Assembly (NCBI GenBank): GCA_040377305.1
Contig: JBEIPA010000001.1
Coordinates: forward strand, 160,001-224,000
Direction: 5' to 3'
DNA: 64,000 bases
Source: Flavobacteriales bacterium
GTDB lineage: Bacteria; Bacteroidota; Bacteroidia; Palsa-965
The position numbers were made by a program, and so were the translations under genes. Below the pieces are notes generated by a model that saw only the letters and a list, made by a program, of their open reading frames with translations, did no database searches and was not told the DNA's origin. This document shows positions 23,997 through 36,804 of this stretch, piece after piece (position 1 is the stretch's first letter; each line of letters starts with the position of its first letter).

Positions 23997-24581
23997 ATGA
24001 AAAAACTATTCCTCTTGCCACTTTTAGCCCTGAGCGTAATCACGGCATCTGCACAGGCTCCAACCGTTTCTGGTGGAACCGAGCGTCCGGGACCTACGAT
24101 GAAATTCGAAGAGCTTGACCACAACTTCGGAACTATCAAACAGGGTGAGTCTGTTACTCACATCTTTAAGTTCAAGAATGATGGCAAAGAGCCGCTGATT
24201 ATCAACACTGCGGTTGGTTCATGCGGATGTACAGTTCCTGAGTATCCAAAAGAGCCAATCCGTCCAAACGGTGCGGGTGAAATCAAAGTTACTTTCAACT
24301 CTACTGGAAAATCAGGTCCACAAGACAAGACGATCACTATCACTTATGATACTGACAAGACAGTTGTACTGCACATGCGTGGTACTGTAGAAGTTCCGGC
24401 ACCAGCGCCTGCTCCTGCTGCTCCTGCACAAGGACCAGCTCAAGCACCAACTGCAAAGCCTGCTGCTTCGCCAGCTCCTGCTCCGACTGCACAACCAAAA
24501 GTTGTTGCAACTCCTGCTCCCGCTCCTGCCGCAACTAAAGATGCGCAGCCAGCTCCAGCACCTGCTAACAAACCAAAATAA
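23997..24581 (+). CDS. DUF1573 domain protein 1 with Pro/Ala-rich tail
   Basis: HNFGTIKQG..FKFKNDGKEPLII..GSCGCTVPEYPKEPI; signal peptide; PAPAPA tail. Confidence 0.9.
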   Translation: MKKLFLLPLLALSVITASAQAPTVSGGTERPGPTMKFEELDHNFGTIKQGESVTHIFKFKNDGKEPLIINTAVGSCGCTVPEYPKEPIRPNGAGEIKVTFNSTGKSGPQDKTITITYDTDKTVVLHMRGTVEVPAPAPAPAAPAQGPAQAPTAKPAASPAPAPTAQPKVVATPAPAPAATKDAQPAPAPANKPK

Positions 24582-24607
24582 TCAATCACACCGTTTTTTC
24601 ATTACCA

Positions 24608-25114
24608 ATGAAAAAGTTCATCACACTTGCAGCACTTTGCGCTTTCGCCTTCACGGTGAATGCGCAAACTCCTGCTCCAAAGCCGAAGGCAACACCTGCA
24701 GCACCGGCGGCAACTTCTGCTCCTGCTCCGCAGGCAGATCCTGGTTATAAGTTCGACAAGCTGGATCACGATTACGGTACAATCCAAAAAGGTGCTGAGC
24801 CTTATTGTGAGTTCCGTCTTACAAACACAGGAAAAGCTCCGCTTGTAATTGCAAGCGCTGTTGGATCATGTGGCTGTACAGTTCCGGAATATCCTAAAGA
24901 GCCAGTAGCTCCAGGACAATCTGTGATTATCAAGGTTCGTTACGACACCCAGCGTATTGGTCACTTCGAAAAGCAAGTGACAGTAAGTTTTGCTGGTCAG
25001 TCGACTCCTGCGATTTTGAAAATTCACGGTACTGTTGAAGCTCCTCCTGCTGATCAGCCATTCCCGGGTCCGGGAACCGGCACAGGAACGACGGGCGCAC
25101 CAGTTAACCAGTAA
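24608..25114 (+). CDS. DUF1573 domain protein 2
   Basis: HDYGTI..NTGKAPLVI..SCGCTVPEYPKEPVAPG. Confidence 0.9.
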   Translation: MKKFITLAALCAFAFTVNAQTPAPKPKATPAAPAATSAPAPQADPGYKFDKLDHDYGTIQKGAEPYCEFRLTNTGKAPLVIASAVGSCGCTVPEYPKEPVAPGQSVIIKVRYDTQRIGHFEKQVTVSFAGQSTPAILKIHGTVEAPPADQPFPGPGTGTGTTGAPVNQ

Positions 25115-25125
25115 TCTTAAACAAC

Positions 25126-25539
25126 ATGAAGAAGGCAATTGCGTGCCTGCTATTCGTAGCAGCTTTCATTAGTGTAAAGGCACAAGACCTTTCATCCGCT
25201 GCAAAAGCAGTTGAAGGGGCTGTGATCACTTTTGAAGAATCTGTGATTGACTTTGGAAATATTGTTGAAGGAAGCGAACAGCTCCGCACATTTAAGTTTA
25301 CGAATACGGGAACTGCACCTTTGATTATTTCCAGCATCAAAGGACAGTGTGGTTGCACGACGATCAGCGATAGCTGGCCGAAAGAAGCCATTGCTCCCGG
25401 CGCAAGCGGAGAGTTCCAGGTTAAATACGACACAAAGTCGCGCGTAGGACAATTCGACAAGAAAATTGTCATTACTTCGAATGCATCAGTTCCAGTAACT
25501 GAAGTGCATATCAAAGGAAACGTGACCGCGGCACAATAG
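25126..25539 (+). CDS. DUF1573 domain protein 3
   Basis: DFGNI..FKFTNTGTAPLII..QCGCTT..KEAIAPG. Confidence 0.9.
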   Translation: MKKAIACLLFVAAFISVKAQDLSSAAKAVEGAVITFEESVIDFGNIVEGSEQLRTFKFTNTGTAPLIISSIKGQCGCTTISDSWPKEAIAPGASGEFQVKYDTKSRVGQFDKKIVITSNASVPVTEVHIKGNVTAAQ

Positions 25540-25557
25540 CGTTTGTTGGTTAAAACT

Positions 25558-25592
25558 AAAAAGCCCTGCAGTGAAAGCTGACGGGGCTTTTT
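25558..25592 (+). terminator. Intrinsic terminator after DUF1573 gene 3
   Basis: AAAAAGCCC...GGGCTTTTT hairpin. Confidence 0.65.
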
Positions 25593-25681
25593 AATGTGCT
25601 AATATGTCAATCGGTTAATGTGCTAATCGAATATAAACGTATTTCTATCCGGTCATCTTATCATTCTATCATCCAATCATC
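25593..25681. repeat. Two degenerate 8-bp-period arrays (AATGTGCT-type and TCATCnnA-type)
   Basis: aatgtgct-aatatgtc-aatcggtt-aatgtgct (25593-25624); tcatctta-tcattcta-tcatccaa-tcatc (25653-25681). Confidence 0.55.
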
Positions 25682-25751
25682 GTTTCCGACCTAATTTAAC
25701 ACAGAGTGGTTCAGTTGTTGCTGTATAAAAGCAAACATTATACACACTAAC

Positions 25752-26210
25752 ATGAAACGAGTAATCTTAACGCTGATCTGTGCTGCGACATCACTGATCG
25801 CATTTGCACAACCAACAACATCAGATCCGGTGGTTGATCCTTCAGCTCCGAAAATTACATTTGAAACCACCGAATACAACTTCGATTCAATTGTGCAGGG
25901 CGATACAGTGAAGTACACATTCACATTCAAGAACACTGGAAAATCTCCGCTCGTGATTTCCGACGTAACAGTTGGATGCGGATGTACAGTTCCGAAATAT
26001 TCTAAAGAACCAATTGCTCCGGGCAAGAAAGGAACTATCTACGTTGAGTTCCGTTCAGCAGGGAAAATGGGTGTGCAGGAAAAACCGATTACGGTGATCT
26101 CAAACAACGGTGGCGGAAACGTCGTGTTGTTCCTCCGCGGCAAAGTAGTTGCAAAAGCTGGTGCTGATGCAGGTACAATGAACCGCACAGGCGGACCTCA
26201 GAATAAATAA
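25752..26210 (+). CDS. DUF1573 domain protein 4
   Basis: YNFDSI..FTFKNTGKSPLVI..GCGCTVPKYSKEPIAPG. Confidence 0.9.
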   Translation: MKRVILTLICAATSLIAFAQPTTSDPVVDPSAPKITFETTEYNFDSIVQGDTVKYTFTFKNTGKSPLVISDVTVGCGCTVPKYSKEPIAPGKKGTIYVEFRSAGKMGVQEKPITVISNNGGGNVVLFLRGKVVAKAGADAGTMNRTGGPQNK

Positions 26211-26380
26211 TACATCCCGAATAAAAATGATGCGCAACACGCTGACGATATTACTCTGTGTTTGCGCATCATTTATTTTGAGGCACGACCAAATATCAGT
26301 TTCGAAGATTCCGCCCAGGCTTGAATATGTTCCACCGGTTCCAGCGAACAAACCGAATCATTAATTTCTAACTTAGAACA

Positions 26381-26767
26381 ATGAAATCCCGCATCCTGTT
26401 ACTCGCAGTTATCGTCCTTACGCTAGGAGCTTTCAAATCCGGCACCGGACCAACGATGACATTCACCGAAACGAAACACAACTTTGGTTTTATTCGTCAG
26501 GGCGAAGTGGTTTCGCATGAATTCGAATTCACGAATACCGGAGACGGTCCGCTCATTATCAACGAATGTGTTGTTGCGTGCGAGTGTACCAAAGTTGAAT
26601 TCCCGAAAGAACCGATTGCGCCTCAGGCAAAAGGCAACATCAAAGTCACATTTGAATCGAAAAGCGCTATTGATCGTCAGGAACGCGATGTAGTTGTAAA
26701 ATCAAATGCTGCAAATTCACCGCAGACGCTTGTGTTTAAGTGTGTGGTTCTGAAACCAAAGGATTAA
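26381..26767 (+). CDS. DUF1573 domain protein 5 (CECT variant)
   Basis: HNFGFI..FEFTNTGDGPLII..ACECTKVEFPKEPIAP. Confidence 0.88.
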   Translation: MKSRILLLAVIVLTLGAFKSGTGPTMTFTETKHNFGFIRQGEVVSHEFEFTNTGDGPLIINECVVACECTKVEFPKEPIAPQAKGNIKVTFESKSAIDRQERDVVVKSNAANSPQTLVFKCVVLKPKD

Positions 26768-30138: not shown

Positions 30139-30639
30139 ATGATGAAAAAACCTCTTTTGATTCTGGGGCTGGTTGCTGGTAGTTATGGATTCCTGCATTC
30201 ACAATCAATCTCTCCTGATGTTATTTCAACAGCCGGAGATTTTTATTCGAATGCAAGCGGATCGATTTCGTGGACATTGGGAGAACCGATGGGCGAAACT
30301 TATACCTCTACCAACAACATCCTCACGCAGGGATTTCAGCAACCATGGGATTTTGGAACCGGAATGAATCCCGGAACCACACCTGTTGACGCTGATGTAT
30401 TCCCGAACCCTACAGCGGATGTAGTGAATCTCCAGTTCGACAATACTTCGAACGGAACGTACGTGATTGAAGTGTATAATGCACTCGGTCAGCAAATGAG
30501 CGCAACGCAGTTTACTGCAACGCCATCTGCACGCGCTACTGTTTCGCTTGCGGAATTCTCGAATGGAATTTATTTCATTACAGTACGCAAAGTCGATGGA
30601 ACAGAGTCCTCGACGTTCAAAATCACTAAAAACGAATAA
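30139..30639 (+). CDS. Small T9SS type-A CTD protein (module A, putative adaptor)
   Basis: Signal peptide, ~60-aa domain QSISPDVISTAG..SISWTLGEP..LTQGFQQP, then CTD VFPNPT..GIYFI..TFKITK. Confidence 0.88.
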   Translation: MMKKPLLILGLVAGSYGFLHSQSISPDVISTAGDFYSNASGSISWTLGEPMGETYTSTNNILTQGFQQPWDFGTGMNPGTTPVDADVFPNPTADVVNLQFDNTSNGTYVIEVYNALGQQMSATQFTATPSARATVSLAEFSNGIYFITVRKVDGTESSTFKITKNE

Positions 30640-30660
30640 CCCTACCCAACCTACCTCTAC

Positions 30661-32730
30661 ATGAAAAAATTATTATCACTAGTACTCCTCTTAGTTGCCG
30701 GCGTAGCATTCGCTCAGGCACCTCAGATGGTAAAGTACCAAGGTGTTGCGCGTGATGCTGCTGGTGCAGTAATCGCAAACGGCACGATCACTGTACAATT
30801 CGATGTTCACACTGGTTCTGCAGCGGGTCCTATCGCTTACACTGAAACACACGTAGGTGTTACGACTAACCAATTCGGTTTGTTTAGCATCAGCATGGGT
30901 TCTGTTTCTCCATTCCCTGCTAACCTTTTCGGAGCAGGTTCAGAATTCCTTGAAGTATCTGTCGACTTCGGTACTGGATTAACTTCAATGGGAACTTCAC
31001 AGTTCTTATCTGTTCCTTATGCATTGTTCGCTGATTCATCGGCTAATCCTGGTCCTCAGGGCCCTGCTGGTCCGCAAGGTCCATCTGGTGATCCTGGCGT
31101 TGCTGGTCCACAAGGTCCATCTGGCGATCCTGGTGTAGCTGGTCCGCAAGGTCCATCTGGCGATCCTGGTGTGGCTGGTCCGCAAGGTCCTGCTGGTGTA
31201 ACCGGTCCACAAGGTCCTTCTGGTGATCCTGGAGTAGCTGGTCCGCAAGGTCCTGCTGGTGTAACTGGTCCACAAGGTCCTTCCGGTGACCCTGGTGTAG
31301 CTGGTCCTACTGGTGCAGTTGGTCCTCAAGGTCCTACTGGTGCAGTTGGTCCTCAAGGTCCTGCTGGTGTTACTGGCGCTCAAGGTCCGGCTGGCGCAGT
31401 TGGCCCTCAAGGTCCTGCTGGTGTTACTGGCGCTCAAGGTCCTGCTGGTGCAGTTGGTCCGCAAGGTCCTGCTGGTGTTACTGGTGCTCAAGGTCCTGCT
31501 GGTGTTGCTGGTCCCCAAGGTCCAATTGGTCCTGCTGGTGCAGTTGGTGCTCAAGGTCCACAAGGTGTAGCGGGTCCTGTTGGTCCAGCTGGTGCAGTTG
31601 GTCCTCAAGGTGCTGCTGGTCCAACTGGTGCAACCGGTCTACTTACTAATGGTACAGGCGCTGGGCAAACAGCTTATTGGGATGGAACAAATTGGGTAAT
31701 CAACGGGAACATTTATAACAATGGTGCTAACGTTGGTATAAATACAGTTCCTTCTGTTAGTCGCAAACTGGATGTGTATTGGGTTCAACAGACAGCGACA
31801 GGTGATGGTCAAGCAACTATCTACGGTTACCGCACGCGTGATAACCAAAATGACGGAATTTCTTATGCGATAAATGGCGGACAAAGTGCAATGCAGGGAT
31901 ACAACTTCTGGGGTGATGTTTACACTTGGGGTGTAGCTGGCCACAACTACAACGACTATAACCGTACAGGCGGCGTACTTGGAGCTGATGTCAACGGCAC
32001 ATATTGGGGATCCCTCGGATACAGAAGTTCGGCTCTAATGAATTATGGTGTTTACGGATCTGCGGCTTATGCTAGCGGTGCTGGTCGCATGTCCAATGGC
32101 ATTCGCACTGGAATTGGTGGCGGTTTCTACGGTGACCTCATGGGTGGCTGGGTTCGTGGTGATATCATGGGTCTTACTACTATGGGATCTATGTACGCTG
32201 CATTCAATATCGGCAACACATTCAACACAGGTTTCCATGCTGACCTCGTAAACACTGGTGGTCGCGTTGTTCCTGCGTACGCAGTTACTTCGACAAAAGT
32301 GAAGTGCTATGATGACGGTTCTGCACAATTGAACAACGGAACAGTTCGCGTGAACTTCACTCCTGAGTATGCAGCGCTTATCAAAGGAAACGGCAAGCCA
32401 ACTGTAACTGTATCTGCAATGGGTATGTGCAACGGTCTTTACATCGTTTCTATCGATGAAGCAGGTTTCACAGTTGCAGAACTTGGTAACGGAACAAGCA
32501 ACGTTGAGTTCAGCTACATCGTAGTTGGTACTCGTGTTGATGCTGTTAACTCGACGGTTCCTTCTGAGCTTACAAATCCTGAATTCAGCGTGAAGATGAA
32601 AGCGGTAATGGGTAACGACGGAAATACTGAGCAGTCTGCTGCTCCAATGTTCTGGAACGGAACTACGCTCGAATACAATGCTGCTCCCGAGGCTCCAAAG
32701 CCTGCAAAAGTTGAAATGAATCGTAACTAA
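30661..32730 (+). CDS. Secreted collagen-like fibre protein (module A): conserved N-domain, 66 Gly-X-Y triplets, Gly/Tyr-rich tip; no T9SS CTD seen
   Basis: [29 protein letters not shown]-domain; uninterrupted GXY run 31051-31644. Confidence 0.9.
31051..31644 (+). repeat. Collagen-coding tandem repeat (36-, 54- and 63-bp higher-order units)
   Basis: [12 protein letters not shown] repeated, and [18 protein letters not shown] repeated; 66 triplets counted. Confidence 0.9.
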
Positions 32731-32747
32731 TTTTTTATTGAAATATT

Positions 32748-32793
32748 AAGTCCCGTCTCGTCAACATTTTGACGAGACGGGACTTTTCTTTTT
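32748..32793 (+). terminator. Intrinsic terminator after the collagen fibre gene
   Basis: AAGTCCCGTCTCGTCAA-loop-TTGACGAGACGGGACTT followed by a T-rich run. Confidence 0.8.
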
Positions 32794-32803
32794 ACTTTGT
32801 CGT

Positions 32804-33727
32804 GTGAGAATACTGATTCCGTTTTTATTTCTTTCTAATTTCTTATTCGCGCAGGATCGTAGCGTGTTGCCCGGCAACACTGAAGCGTATTACCAGAATG
32901 TAATTACATATCTCGCCAGCGATTCTATGAAAGGTCGATTGCCTGGGACACGGGAAGAAAAAATCTCGGCTGAATACATTGCCGCAGAATTACAACGCAT
33001 TGGCTGCAAACCAATCAAACGAAAACGATTCGTTCATCCGTTCGATTACAAATCAAATGACACAACGCTGGTGCATTCTTCCGGCAATGTCATTGGGAAA
33101 ATAAATTCCCCTTCACAACAGTGCATCGTAATAACCGCACACTATGATCACATCGGTTATGGCTATCAACACTCCAATGATCCGTTTAGTCACACTATAC
33201 ACAACGGAGCAGATGACAATGCAAGCGGTGTGGCCCTGTTATTGGCTATGGCCCAATGGTGCACTGAACACAAATCCGAATTACGTTACGATGTAATTTT
33301 CGCTGCGGTAAGCGCCGAAGAAGATGGCTTGTTTGGTTCTGCAGAATTCCTGCGGTCTAAATTCATCGATACTTCTGAAATAATCTGCAACATAAATTTC
33401 GATATGGTCGGACATCTGGATTTGCTGCGCCCCATGCTCATTGTCGAAGGATCGTTTGAATCCACGTTCTGGAAAAATGTTCTGCCTTCAGACTCTGCTT
33501 CTGGATTTATCGTCAATCGTACAGCGGTAAAATTCAAAGACGGGTCCGATCACTGTTCATTCATTAATGCCAATATCCCAGCCGTACTTCTGTCAAGTGG
33601 AATAACACAACACTACCACAGACCAAGTGACGATGCGGCAACAATTAACTACAAGGGATTGGTTTCAATTGGGCGATACACAGAAAATTTGTTGTCGAAT
33701 CTCAATACGGTGAAACCTTCCCGGTAA
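32804..33727 (+). CDS. M28 family peptidase
   Basis: AHYDHIG, NGADDNASG, SAEEDGLFGS, NFDMVG, SDH, YHRPSD. Confidence 0.92.
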   Translation: MRILIPFLFLSNFLFAQDRSVLPGNTEAYYQNVITYLASDSMKGRLPGTREEKISAEYIAAELQRIGCKPIKRKRFVHPFDYKSNDTTLVHSSGNVIGKINSPSQQCIVITAHYDHIGYGYQHSNDPFSHTIHNGADDNASGVALLLAMAQWCTEHKSELRYDVIFAAVSAEEDGLFGSAEFLRSKFIDTSEIICNINFDMVGHLDLLRPMLIVEGSFESTFWKNVLPSDSASGFIVNRTAVKFKDGSDHCSFINANIPAVLLSSGITQHYHRPSDDAATINYKGLVSIGRYTENLLSNLNTVKPSR

Positions 33728-33825
33728 GGGCAAGCATCGGATTCCACATACTCAGCAGTGGAGAATAAATGGAAAATGACGTAACTTGTACTTCCATTTC
33801 GGCTCGGCCGCTAATAGTGAATGAA

Positions 33826-34320
33826 ATGAAAAAATTTATACTAAGCACAGCATGCCCGGTATTGATTACCTGCCTGTTAAATGCACAATCAATTTCACCA
33901 GAAGTTATCGCGTCTGCAGGCGAATACTATTCGAATGTAAACGGATCCATTTCGTGGACGCTCGGTGAACCCATGGGCGAAACGTATTCCCAAACAAACA
34001 ATATCATTACACAAGGATTCCAGCAACCAACGGATTTCGGCACGCGTGTCATTGTTGGCGATCCTGTGAATGCGGAAGTTTATCCGAATCCTACCGCCGA
34101 CATTGTAAATCTTCAGTTCGGTGACAACACGAACGGTCAGTACGTAATTGAAGTGTTCAACACCTTGGGGCAGCAACTCAAGACGTCTACTTTCAACGCT
34201 ACACCATCTTCGAAAGCAACTGTTTCATTGTTCGATTATTCTGATGGAATATATTTCATCACAGTTCGCAAAACCGACGGCACTGAAAGTTCCACATTCC
34301 GCATCACTAAGAATTCTTAA
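33826..34320 (+). CDS. Small T9SS type-A CTD protein (module B paralogue)
   Basis: Near-collinear paralogue of 30139-30639 (GSISWTLGEPMGETY identical); start MKKFIL at 33826. Confidence 0.88.
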   Translation: MKKFILSTACPVLITCLLNAQSISPEVIASAGEYYSNVNGSISWTLGEPMGETYSQTNNIITQGFQQPTDFGTRVIVGDPVNAEVYPNPTADIVNLQFGDNTNGQYVIEVFNTLGQQLKTSTFNATPSSKATVSLFDYSDGIYFITVRKTDGTESSTFRITKNS

Positions 34321-34329
34321 AGCAGATTT

Positions 34330-35193
34330 ATGAATAAATTACTTTCGCTGGCACTGCTATTGCCGGCATTCAGTCTTTTTGCACAAGCCCCGCAACAAAT
34401 CAAGTATCAAGGTGTAGCGCGAGATGCCGCAGGATCTGTCATTGCGAATGGTACTCTGACCGTACAGTTTGAAATACACGATGTAACTCCGGTTGGCACG
34501 GTAATTTATTCTGAAACACACACGGGAGTAGCCACCAATCAATTCGGATTATTCTCCGTGAGCATTGGTTCCGTTTCACCGATTGGTCCGTCTGTTTTTG
34601 TTGGAGGAAATGAATTTCTCGAAGTTAGCGTCGATTTCGGATCAGGACTTACAAGCATGGGAACTTCACAAATGCTATCCGTTCCTTATGCAATTTATGC
34701 CGACTCGTGCGGTAACCCTGGCCCACAAGGTCCTGCCGGTCCGTCGGGTACAACCGGACAATCAATCACAGAAGTTTATGGTTCAGGTCAGGTTTCTGTT
34801 GGTGCCGCAACAACAAGCGCGGTTCTTGTACCGGGACTAACTACAACTGTAAACGTGCCGGCGAATTCTGTTGTGCATGTTCACACCGATGGTGGCTTAC
34901 AATCGACAGGAGCTACGAGTTCGACGTTTTCTGTTGTAGACATCATTATCTACGTTGATGGAGTTGCAACTACAACCGGGGGTCAACGTCGTATCTCAAT
35001 TGCAAATACCACCGCGCTGGCTCAACTCATTAGTAATTGGTCAATTGATCACACGTACACATTGCCAGCCGGGAATCACACTTTCGAAGTAAAAGCAGTT
35101 GGTGGAGTTGCAGGAAGTTCATCAGCTAATGTGAGTAGCGGAAGTGCGGCCCAATTACGCGGAGTACTTTCAGTGGAGGTGCTGAAGCAATAA
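34330..35193 (+). CDS. Secreted short fibre protein (module B): same N-domain, ~5-6 GXY triplets, different beta-rich tip; no CTD seen
   Basis: [28 protein letters not shown], then [18 protein letters not shown], then a C-terminus unrelated to module A. Confidence 0.88.
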   Translation: MNKLLSLALLLPAFSLFAQAPQQIKYQGVARDAAGSVIANGTLTVQFEIHDVTPVGTVIYSETHTGVATNQFGLFSVSIGSVSPIGPSVFVGGNEFLEVSVDFGSGLTSMGTSQMLSVPYAIYADSCGNPGPQGPAGPSGTTGQSITEVYGSGQVSVGAATTSAVLVPGLTTTVNVPANSVVHVHTDGGLQSTGATSSTFSVVDIIIYVDGVATTTGGQRRISIANTTALAQLISNWSIDHTYTLPAGNHTFEVKAVGGVAGSSSANVSSGSAAQLRGVLSVEVLKQ

Positions 35194-35210: not shown

Positions 35211-35241
35211 AAAAAAGGAGACCGATTTGATCTCCTTTTTT
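35211..35241. terminator. Bidirectional terminator between convergent genes
   Basis: AAAAAAGGAGA-loop-TCTCCTTTTTT. Confidence 0.75.
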
Positions 35242-35244
35242 CAT

Positions 35245-36804
35245 TTATAGAATTATCGTTTTCGTTCGTGTGACTCCTGAACTGGTCAATCGCAACACAT
35301 ACGTTCCCGCTGCAAGATCTCTGGTATTGATCACCGCTGTGTTGAAACCGGCACCGCTGCGATCCGTATTTATTATGCGCACAACTTTTCCGCTTGCATC
35401 AACAAGCTCAAGCGTTGCTGCACCTGCATTGGGCAGAAAGTATTGCACATTCAGATCCTGACCATTCGATGGAACTGGAAAAGGTGCATACAATTGCGGT
35501 GTTTCTACAATTGAGTGAAACGTTTCCGGCGTTGAAGAAAGCAATGAGGAATCAATAATGATGTCTTCATCGCCCAACTGGTACGCCAGATAAGCGTAAT
35601 ACACCACCAACATTTCGTCGGTAGTTGATTCACCTACTGAAACGTCCTGCGGTGGATTGTTCGGATTCGAAAGGTTGTTGACTGTGTTGTCGTAAATCGC
35701 GTATGCATGTAGCGTACTTCCGTACGGAACGTGAATAGGCATCTGATAGTTATAGAATCCTTGCCAGTGGAATGACCAATTCGGAATTTTCACCAGTGGA
35801 ATTGTGTCGCCATTCGGATCAATTGCATAACTGCAGATTTCTTTCCCGATGAGATGCATGTGCGGTGCAGTGCTGATCACACTCACATTGTACTGAACAG
35901 GTTCCTGCGCATAAAATGTCTTTACGCTATCTGCGGGTATAAACAGAGGCCCGTTTGTGATTGATGTAGAGTGATTAATTGCAGGTGTCAGGAAAACTTC
36001 ACGCACCACACCGGATGAGAAAGTGAATCGCACATGTGTGGAGTCAATTTGACCAAAAGTACCTCCGGGATAATGGACTTGCATAATGATGTTCGTGTTT
36101 TGCAAAAGCTTCACGCCCATATTCTGTGGAAGTTCCCACATTCCTTGTCCCGGAACCCAGCCCATAACGAGCGTTGCTGTTGCTGAACCAACATCTCCGA
36201 ACCATGTGTAGCCCGGACCGGGATCGGCTGCATCAAGAGTATAGCACGTGTTCGATTGATCCTGAAAAACCAATACGTGATGCACAATGTTTCTATTGCC
36301 TGGAATCACTTCAACCTTGGTGATGTATTCATCTTGCGTGTTTCCGCTAGGCATAACGAAACAGCGATACAAATCGTTTGCTGCGTTTACTGTAAAGGTT
36401 GGAATCTGTGTCACCTGATCCGGATTGGGCATTTCCGCTACGCTATTGTAGGACGGAGGTGTGGGTGCATTCGCAAGGTTTCCCTGCTGAATTCCATTAT
36501 CGACCCAATCGGAAATGGTTTGGATTTCCTGTTGCGATAAAATTCGCTCATGCATGAAGTGACGATATGCGGAATCTGGTGGCCATGGTGGCATGGTGCG
36601 ATTTTGCACAGCATTCTTGATGTCTGTAGATTCATTCGCGGCATCTCCGTATGTGATCAGCGAAAACGGGGCAATTCCGTTCGGGTTGTGACACTTCGTA
36701 CAGTTTGCGTAGAGAATTGGTGCAACATCTTCAGCCCAATAAGGACCTTGGGCGCTTACACAGAATGGAAAAAGCGCGATGATAAGGGTGTAAAGTTTCT
36801 TCAT
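35245..36804 (-). CDS. Cytochrome c + copper type II (PHM/DBH-like) monooxygenase with T9SS type-A CTD
   Basis: CTKCH heme motif with MPPWP; IVHHVL, QVHY, PHMH, WSFHWQ, DEM copper-ligand pattern; C-terminal PFPVP..GTYVLRL..TKTIIL. Confidence 0.82.
   Translation of the reverse strand: MKKLYTLIIALFPFCVSAQGPYWAEDVAPILYANCTKCHNPNGIAPFSLITYGDAANESTDIKNAVQNRTMPPWPPDSAYRHFMHERILSQQEIQTISDWVDNGIQQGNLANAPTPPSYNSVAEMPNPDQVTQIPTFTVNAANDLYRCFVMPSGNTQDEYITKVEVIPGNRNIVHHVLVFQDQSNTCYTLDAADPGPGYTWFGDVGSATATLVMGWVPGQGMWELPQNMGVKLLQNTNIIMQVHYPGGTFGQIDSTHVRFTFSSGVVREVFLTPAINHSTSITNGPLFIPADSVKTFYAQEPVQYNVSVISTAPHMHLIGKEICSYAIDPNGDTIPLVKIPNWSFHWQGFYNYQMPIHVPYGSTLHAYAIYDNTVNNLSNPNNPPQDVSVGESTTDEMLVVYYAYLAYQLGDEDIIIDSSLLSSTPETFHSIVETPQLYAPFPVPSNGQDLNVQYFLPNAGAATLELVDASGKVVRIINTDRSGAGFNTAVINTRDLAAGTYVLRLTSSGVTRTKTIIL

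Follow-up and report, generated by a model that had tools for sequence, protein, structure and literature searches.

Within a 64,000-nucleotide stretch of the genome of a Flavobacteriales bacterium, hereafter the window (GenBank assembly GCA_040377305.1, contig JBEIPA010000001.1, positions 160,001 to 224,000), a two-gene unit encoding a small secreted adaptor and a fibre protein occurs twice. We find that this pair is a real and widespread module, made up of fibres that resemble the MAT fibres of Bdellovibrio bacteriovorus and of an undescribed adaptor that can be re-tagged; the mechanism that we propose for it is, as judged from sequence, likely. The adaptor consists of a signal peptide, a short head and a C-terminal domain (CTD) of type A, the tag borne by type IX secretion system (T9SS) cargo, and the fibre of a signal peptide, a conserved base, a collagen stalk and a tip. 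Coordinates refer to the window; G000 is the source genome, C a contig, and G, L and P denote other genomes, loci and proteins.

Both units lie on the forward strand with a gene for an M28 peptidase in between, and the open reading frame (ORF) listing bears out what the original prediction had read from the DNA, including the intergenic gaps of 21 bp (A1 to F1) and 9 bp (A2 to F2). Signal peptides of A1, A2, F1 and F2 were assigned by eye, and the start of A2 was taken to be the ATG at 33826, although the ORF lister begins 57 bases upstream. The features are as follows.

30139-30639, forward: adaptor A1, 166 aa, with signal peptide, head and type-A T9SS CTD
30202-30360, forward: head of A1, residues 22-74, two beta-hairpins predicted, without a Pfam or NCBIfam family
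30397-30615, forward: type-A CTD of A1, PF18962 match at residues 87-159
30661-32730, forward: fibre F1, 689 aa, without a CTD
30715-31044, forward: base of F1 (residues 19-128), modelled as an Ig-like beta-sandwich and weakly matched by NF053851 (Bdello_MAT_N)
31051-31644, forward: collagen stalk of F1, 66 uninterrupted Gly-X-Y triplets, residues 131-328
31645-32727, forward: tip of F1, without a Pfam match
32748-32785, forward: hairpin resembling an intrinsic terminator, which closes unit 1
32804-33727, forward: M28 peptidase (PF04389)
33826-34320, forward: adaptor A2, 164 aa, with signal peptide, head (33886-34044) and type-A CTD
34330-35193, forward: fibre F2, 287 aa, beginning with a signal peptide
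34384-34713, forward: base of F2, 110 residues
34711-34764, forward: stalk of F2, six Gly-X-Y triplets, residues 128-145
34765-35190, forward: tip of F2, a look-alike of the Bc2L-C N-terminal domain, which is a lead only
35211-35240, no strand assigned: hairpin with flanking A and T runs between F2 and a convergent gene, found by eye and missed by the terminator scanner

The heads of the two units are 79% identical, their CTDs 70% and their fibre bases 70%, and the tips of F1 and F2 give an insignificant BLAST match (E 8). The picture of a fibre gene with a constant base, a stalk of variable length (66 versus 6 triplets) and unrelated tips thus stands. At the DNA level, the units are 66% identical over 888 bases and then diverge from the stalk onward. 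The first gene is likewise as described, with a signal peptide, about 60 mature residues ahead of the CTD, and a CTD that scores 47.4 (A1) and 45.7 bits (A2) against TIGR04183 (cut-off 23) and is above the cut-off of PF18962 as well. A signal peptide with a C-terminal type-A CTD makes the adaptors type-A cargo of the T9SS, and the source genome has the translocon (SprA at G000:C49) and at least 150 CTD matches. F1 and F2, for their part, match none of the CTD or autotransporter-anchor models in Pfam and NCBIfam.

The pairing extends well beyond the window. We searched 301 Bacteroidota genomes. A single head sequence found matches in only 3 of 151 genomes, so that profile searches were required, and since the wider head profiles were trained on fibre neighbours, genomes G151-G300, which were not used in training, were scored apart. 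The narrowest profile (7 rows) gave 20 matches in 12 of 151 genomes, all of which, checked by hand, adjoin a base match, including 13 of 13 outside the training rows. With the 32-row profile, 49 of 54 matches adjoin a base (17 of 22 outside training). The unseen genomes, scored by hand, contain 65 head matches, of which 50 are directly adjacent to a base gene and 8 more lie within a few kb of one; four others are near contig ends or on short contigs. The expectation that the two domains co-occur far beyond chance was therefore upheld. Overall, the head is present in 78 and the base in 103 of the 301 genomes, and all 78 head genomes carry the base. The reverse direction is looser, the head adjoining 40 of 50 strong base matches. 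Named examples are the pairs WP_264793647/WP_264793648 of Aureispira anguillae and WP_284689220/WP_284689221 of Chondrinema litorale, which has a second fibre without a head alongside. In the source genome, a head stands beside three of the five base genes; the orphan bases resemble paired subtypes (C10 is 77-78% identical to F1 and F2, and C60 is 95% identical to C45), and these orphan fibres could use the heads of those subtypes in trans.

The sorting tag is divided very unequally between the partners. Local hidden Markov models (HMMs) place a CTD at the end of 92 of 102 complete head ORFs, compared with 1 of 118 ORFs for complete fibres. The exceptional fibre at L128:2109-7616, which does carry a CTD, nevertheless has a head gene upstream. 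Some heads occur in two or three tandem copies or are fused to large cargo with CAP or RCC1-repeat domains (P0276, P0279 and L291). Among the longer homologues listed and the loci scanned, neither of which amounts to an exhaustive search, no natural fusion of head and base was found.

The tag itself is exchanged. The head encoded at G000:C45 continues into a SprB repeat and a type-B CTD, and its gene lies 3′ of the fibre gene, followed by PorP/SprF and TPR/OmpA genes. The head of L149 ends in IPTL-CTERM, and on metagenome loci other heads carry a dockerin-type tail or an unannotated domain that ends in an FYRL-like motif; we take the contigs with these last two tails to belong to Planctomycetota and Verrucomicrobiota. 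Heads with a type-B CTD, dockerin or IPTL-CTERM are mostly beside a fibre gene. In a further set (L150-L152, L125, L158 and L182), the head is joined to a C-terminal domain that lacks annotation and contains EF-hand/dockerin-like repeats in pairs, for which Pfam and NCBIfam gave no match in the four heads scanned and which is possibly an unrecognised sorting domain. A base gene adjoins the head in 41 of 80 metagenome loci, among them all 27 with at least 2.5 kb of upstream sequence; the other 39 have less flank.

Pairs with CTDs were also found in Calditrichota and KSB1 genomes, and the module extends to Chloroflexota, which are considered to be without an outer membrane (PMC13319060). The Chloroflexota genome G301 has four heads and four bases that form four adjacent pairs, and PF18962 has no match in G301 or G302, genomes whose completeness is not stated. 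There, the head is followed almost directly by a YLP-box (NF050076 above cut-off in one of two proteins scanned; the pattern is seen in 101 of the 120 proteins listed). In a set of 61 Chloroflexota genomes, nine have the head and nine the base, with eight in common. A partner gene adjoins 28 of the 41 heads and 28 of the 53 bases, several of the unpaired heads being at contig starts. The pair is not T9SS-specific, and the C-terminal tag of the head is swapped by lineage. The original prediction is upheld in part. Its adaptor anchoring a fibre by the conserved base is favoured by adjacency, by the tag-less fibre and by weak computed binding; its T9SS-specific module gives way to the Chloroflexota head with a YLP-box. 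Because the pair is also present where there is no outer membrane to cross, tethering looks like the conserved role, and co-export through the T9SS would be a separate proposal. In one Chloroflexota-type fibre scanned, a membrane helix follows the S74 domain, so that cleavage would release the fibre. Two Chloroflexota fibres (L287:1887-4241 and L288) end in S74, a coiled coil and a membrane helix, and would be self-releasing membrane-bound precursors.

The base belongs to a family of 21,748 clusters at 50% identity (E up to 0.001). We assigned domains in the best 150 base homologues, some of which are incomplete, by a Pfam scan with which local HMMs were concordant. Collagen occurs in 63 of the 150 and is thus optional. 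Tips include S74 chaperone (15), C1q (6) and Lcl_C domains (5), with BclA_C, H-lectin and YadA head in three each, and neither a type-A CTD (PF18962), a type-B CTD (CHU_C) nor an autotransporter anchor was matched in any of the 150. A cryptic CTD or anchor on the fibres, which would have counted against the original prediction, was thus not found in F1, F2 and these homologues, and the description "CTD-less collagen fibre" survives in its first half (one CTD in 118 complete fibres), collagen not being a defining trait. An exception among the 150 is P0124, with five base repeats and an FlgD-like tail; at L177:7330-9441, the base domain is near the C-terminus of the protein. The F1 tip is 53% identical to that of P0198 over 340 aa, and its stalk would be about 57 nm long if triple-helical. 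From the collagen and the trimeric tip families, we infer that F1 and F2 are trimeric.

The closest described relatives are the MAT fibres, whose invariant N-domain presumably binds a surface element that is yet to be identified (PMC10769870). A constant N-domain with variable trimeric tips (S74, TNF/C1q-like, lectin) is the common feature, and the window's fibres share the constant base with mosaic tips, given bases that are 70% identical and tips that are unrelated. Collagen stalks are common in the window-type fibres, unlike in MAT fibres. The match to the MAT N-domain model NF053851 is below its cut-off of 60 bits for both F1 (E 2e-7, 30.7 bits) and F2 (E 2e-11, 44.2 bits), covers at most positions 2-107 of 162, and is above cut-off for none of the five base copies of the source genome. 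An NCBIfam scan of 72 homologues, however, finds it at E 0.001 or better in 65 of them, and the base is likely a distant homologue of the MAT N-domain. Its model is an Ig-like sandwich (mean pLDDT 87) for which Foldseek returned generic beta-sandwiches (best E 4e-3) and VIA-align a best Z of 7.9 (rmsd 3.3, 87 aligned), level with many Ig/FnIII-like folds; such matches do not amount to a new fold. A search of 50,697 phage records did not turn up the base, and a plasmid search with one divergent base query found nothing.

The head is less easily placed. Modelled alone, it forms two hairpins with pLDDT 52-84, compared with about 95 for the CTD of the same protein; its fold is uncertain, and a stand-alone globule was not obtained. 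A sequence search of the PDB with head and base profiles gave nothing significant (best E 0.05), and an ESM Atlas search with the head gave matches under 0.9. PamT, of the Pam pili of candidate phyla radiation (CPR) bacteria, matches two head sequences weakly over residues 12-77 (P0280 and one row of alignment A8; E 5e-5 and 5e-3) and is absent from the window's head, with 1 of 51 heads matching weakly. We set this identity aside, the matches being far below the cut-off of 240. Weak PamT matches and Ig-like folds are shared with the Pam pili, which is a lead only; those pili are polymers formed by donor-strand exchange with chaperones, a system that differs from the window's (PMC13278184).

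Binding between head and base, which the original prediction had anticipated, has weak computed support, both results being modest. A complex of three heads and three bases scored 0.58 vs 0.02 for the best of three controls, for which the tool's verdict was weak support; the runs agree in at least 51% of contacts, with partner pLDDT of at least 38. In the calibration of this score, 116 of the 157 solved complexes attain 0.58, as do 2 of the 215 mismatches, the band up to 0.60 holding 18 solved complexes and both mismatches, and the present job is unlike the calibration set. Mean-field covariation over 160 distinct adjacent pairs (Neff 115, gap-rich rows dropped), compared with 79 neighbour-swap controls, gave eight inter-protein pairs above Z 4.5 vs at most six in the controls. 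The mean Z of the top five was 5.8, reached by none of the 79 controls, and the top Z was 6.8, reached by one; the top pairs fall on base strands near profile residues 7, 56-57 and 92-99.

We consider it fairly probable that the head binds the conserved base and tethers a trimeric adhesive fibre to the cell surface with its tip outward, by an adaptor that is re-tagged in each lineage. The head would be the mount because none of its domains could work independently, because it remains next to the base whatever the gene order, tag or phylum, and because the sorting signal of the lineage is on the head, the fibre having none. Both chains would leave the cytoplasm by Sec, the fibre would trimerise through collagen or other trimer motifs, and the head would pack onto the base sandwich. 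In the source organism, the simplest route would take the adaptor-bound fibre across the outer membrane through SprA. The T9SS would process the adaptor CTD normally, by the PorV shuttle followed by linkage to the surface or by release (PMC10994853), and the head would remain as the mount. With tag and fibre on separate proteins, the C-terminus of the fibre would stay available for a binding tip or for a self-cleaving S74 chaperone. The chances of piggy-back export of the fibre through SprA and the T9SS seem to us evenly balanced. A bolder version is a tentative possibility, namely that the head is a cross-phylum mount for thousands of tag-less trimeric fibres, that in Bacteroidota a folded trimer is dragged through the T9SS, and that a homologue is the missing surface partner of MAT fibres.

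Several observations weigh against the mount. Bases without an adjacent head number 10 of 50 strong matches in the main sample and 25 of 53 in Chloroflexota, two of the source genome's five bases are orphans, and 25 of 103 base-positive genomes lack a head at E 0.001, although divergent heads are visible beside some. Conversely, five of 54 head matches are without a listed base nearby, and three of 65 have none in the fetched flank. At G000:C44 (L010:4146-8829), two tandem tag-less collagen fibres have another N-terminal domain, which may represent a further family of bases. S74 terminates one of these fibres, the distal tip of the other resembles that of F1, and since no head gene occurs in the stretch examined, another route for tag-less fibres may exist. 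A beta-barrel gene of the outer-membrane protein type (PF13505, below cut-off) lies between head and fibre in L099, L101 and L105, which speaks against a strict need for the adaptor, and a membrane helix ends 9 of the 74 fibres encoded at Chloroflexota-type loci. The correlation of the base with SprA, which counts in favour, rests on one family: 120 of 151 genomes have SprA, among them every one of the 49 with a base, and the 31 genomes that lack SprA, all from that family, have no base match. The complex score falls in a band deemed more often wrong than right unless the interaction was likely beforehand, and the covariation is shallow and may be inflated by clade structure. Finally, type-A cargo is linked to lipopolysaccharide or released, whereas type-B cargo stays on its carrier (PMC10994853), so that an adaptor of type A can be released instead of anchored.

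An alternative that differs from the preferred reading solely in excluding co-export, and that we regard as unlikely, is that the fibre has a separate route across the outer membrane and meets the head outside, the T9SS exporting the head alone. MAT fibres with a related base do reach the Bdellovibrio surface, and the available part of PMC10769870 does not mention a T9SS link; the other tag-less fibres of the source genome (G000:C44) and the interposed barrel gene fit as well. Yet that gene is absent from most pairs, the base occurs only with SprA within the Bacteroidota sample, and SprA is a 70 Å pore that passes folded substrates, even if assembly of the GhpA heptamer is presumed to take place outside (10.1101/2024.01.29.577165). 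It is improbable, in our judgement, that the head, once bound to the base, serves as a cap or assembly nucleator and that the complex is released, soluble or on vesicles, instead of anchored. The possible release of type-A cargo, the finding of MAT fibres in a vesicle preparation (PMC10769870) and a poor stand-alone head model, which suits co-folding, are in its favour; however, MAT fibres are surface-located (PMC10769870), and some head tails (type-B CTD with PorP/SprF, IPTL-CTERM and dockerin) are described as anchoring. Very unlikely is a co-regulated, co-mobile cassette whose proteins never touch, which would suit the orphan fibres, the few orphan heads and the weak complex support, but adjacency persists when gene order, tag or phylum changes, the head lacks any further domain for a separate job, and covariation exceeds the neighbour-swap controls.

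The proposed mount can be set against other adhesin systems. By its CTD, the adaptor is ordinary T9SS cargo, and the G000:C45 copy has the type-B layout with PorP/SprF and TPR/OmpA. In T9SS adhesins, such as the grappling hook GhpA, which has PorP/PorE-like partners (10.1101/2024.01.29.577165), the sorting domain is part of the adhesin, whose C-terminus is the point of attachment. In the window's system, the tag is on a separate mini-protein, F1, F2 and all but one of the 118 relatives have no CTD of their own, and attachment of the fibre would be at its N-terminus.

Trimeric autotransporter adhesins are trimeric, with modular head and stalk and a C-terminal YadA-type beta-barrel anchor. YadA head repeats occur in the three homologues mentioned, the barrel anchor in none of the 150 nor in F1 or F2, and the polarity is reversed. 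Cohesin-dockerin scaffoldins use a sorted adaptor that mounts cargo non-covalently, and SclA/SclB and BclA combine a collagen stalk with a globular tip. BclA_C tips are found in three of the 150 homologues; the window proteins have no cohesin or LPXTG match, and the Scl and Lcl models match them below cut-off, an effect of the collagen.

In the literature covered, which included few subscription papers, we found no description of this head, of the pairing or of passenger export by the T9SS. A partner gene for MAT fibres is not described in the available part of PMC10769870, nor named in that of a 2026 review (PMC13689555). The suggestion that the system had not been described thus applies to the pairing and not to the fibre class, which is related to the described MAT fibres. 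The base family, though large, is without a Pfam family or a described export or anchoring route, and the searches gave no specific solved relative; a named partner makes the MAT question, namely what holds the constant end, directly testable. If co-export is true, it would be an exception to the rule that each T9SS cargo needs its own CTD, and predictions of T9SS secretomes would miss a large class of adhesins. The 53-residue head and 110-residue base could also serve as a portable pair for surface display.

The M28 peptidase was left out of the module because a terminator-like hairpin precedes its gene and because it was not noticed beside other pairs, for which no dedicated search was made; we saw no sign of its membership. 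A promoter scan returned fewer sites than chance and is uninformative for Bacteroidota. Convergent with F2, the gene at 35245-36804 (reverse strand) encodes a type-A cargo protein of the T9SS that has the domains of a copper type II ascorbate-dependent monooxygenase and, at the N-terminus, a weak haem-binding match. Elsewhere in the window, positions 23997-26767 encode five tandem small secreted proteins with one DUF1573 Ig-like domain each, two of which have Pro/Ala-rich tails.

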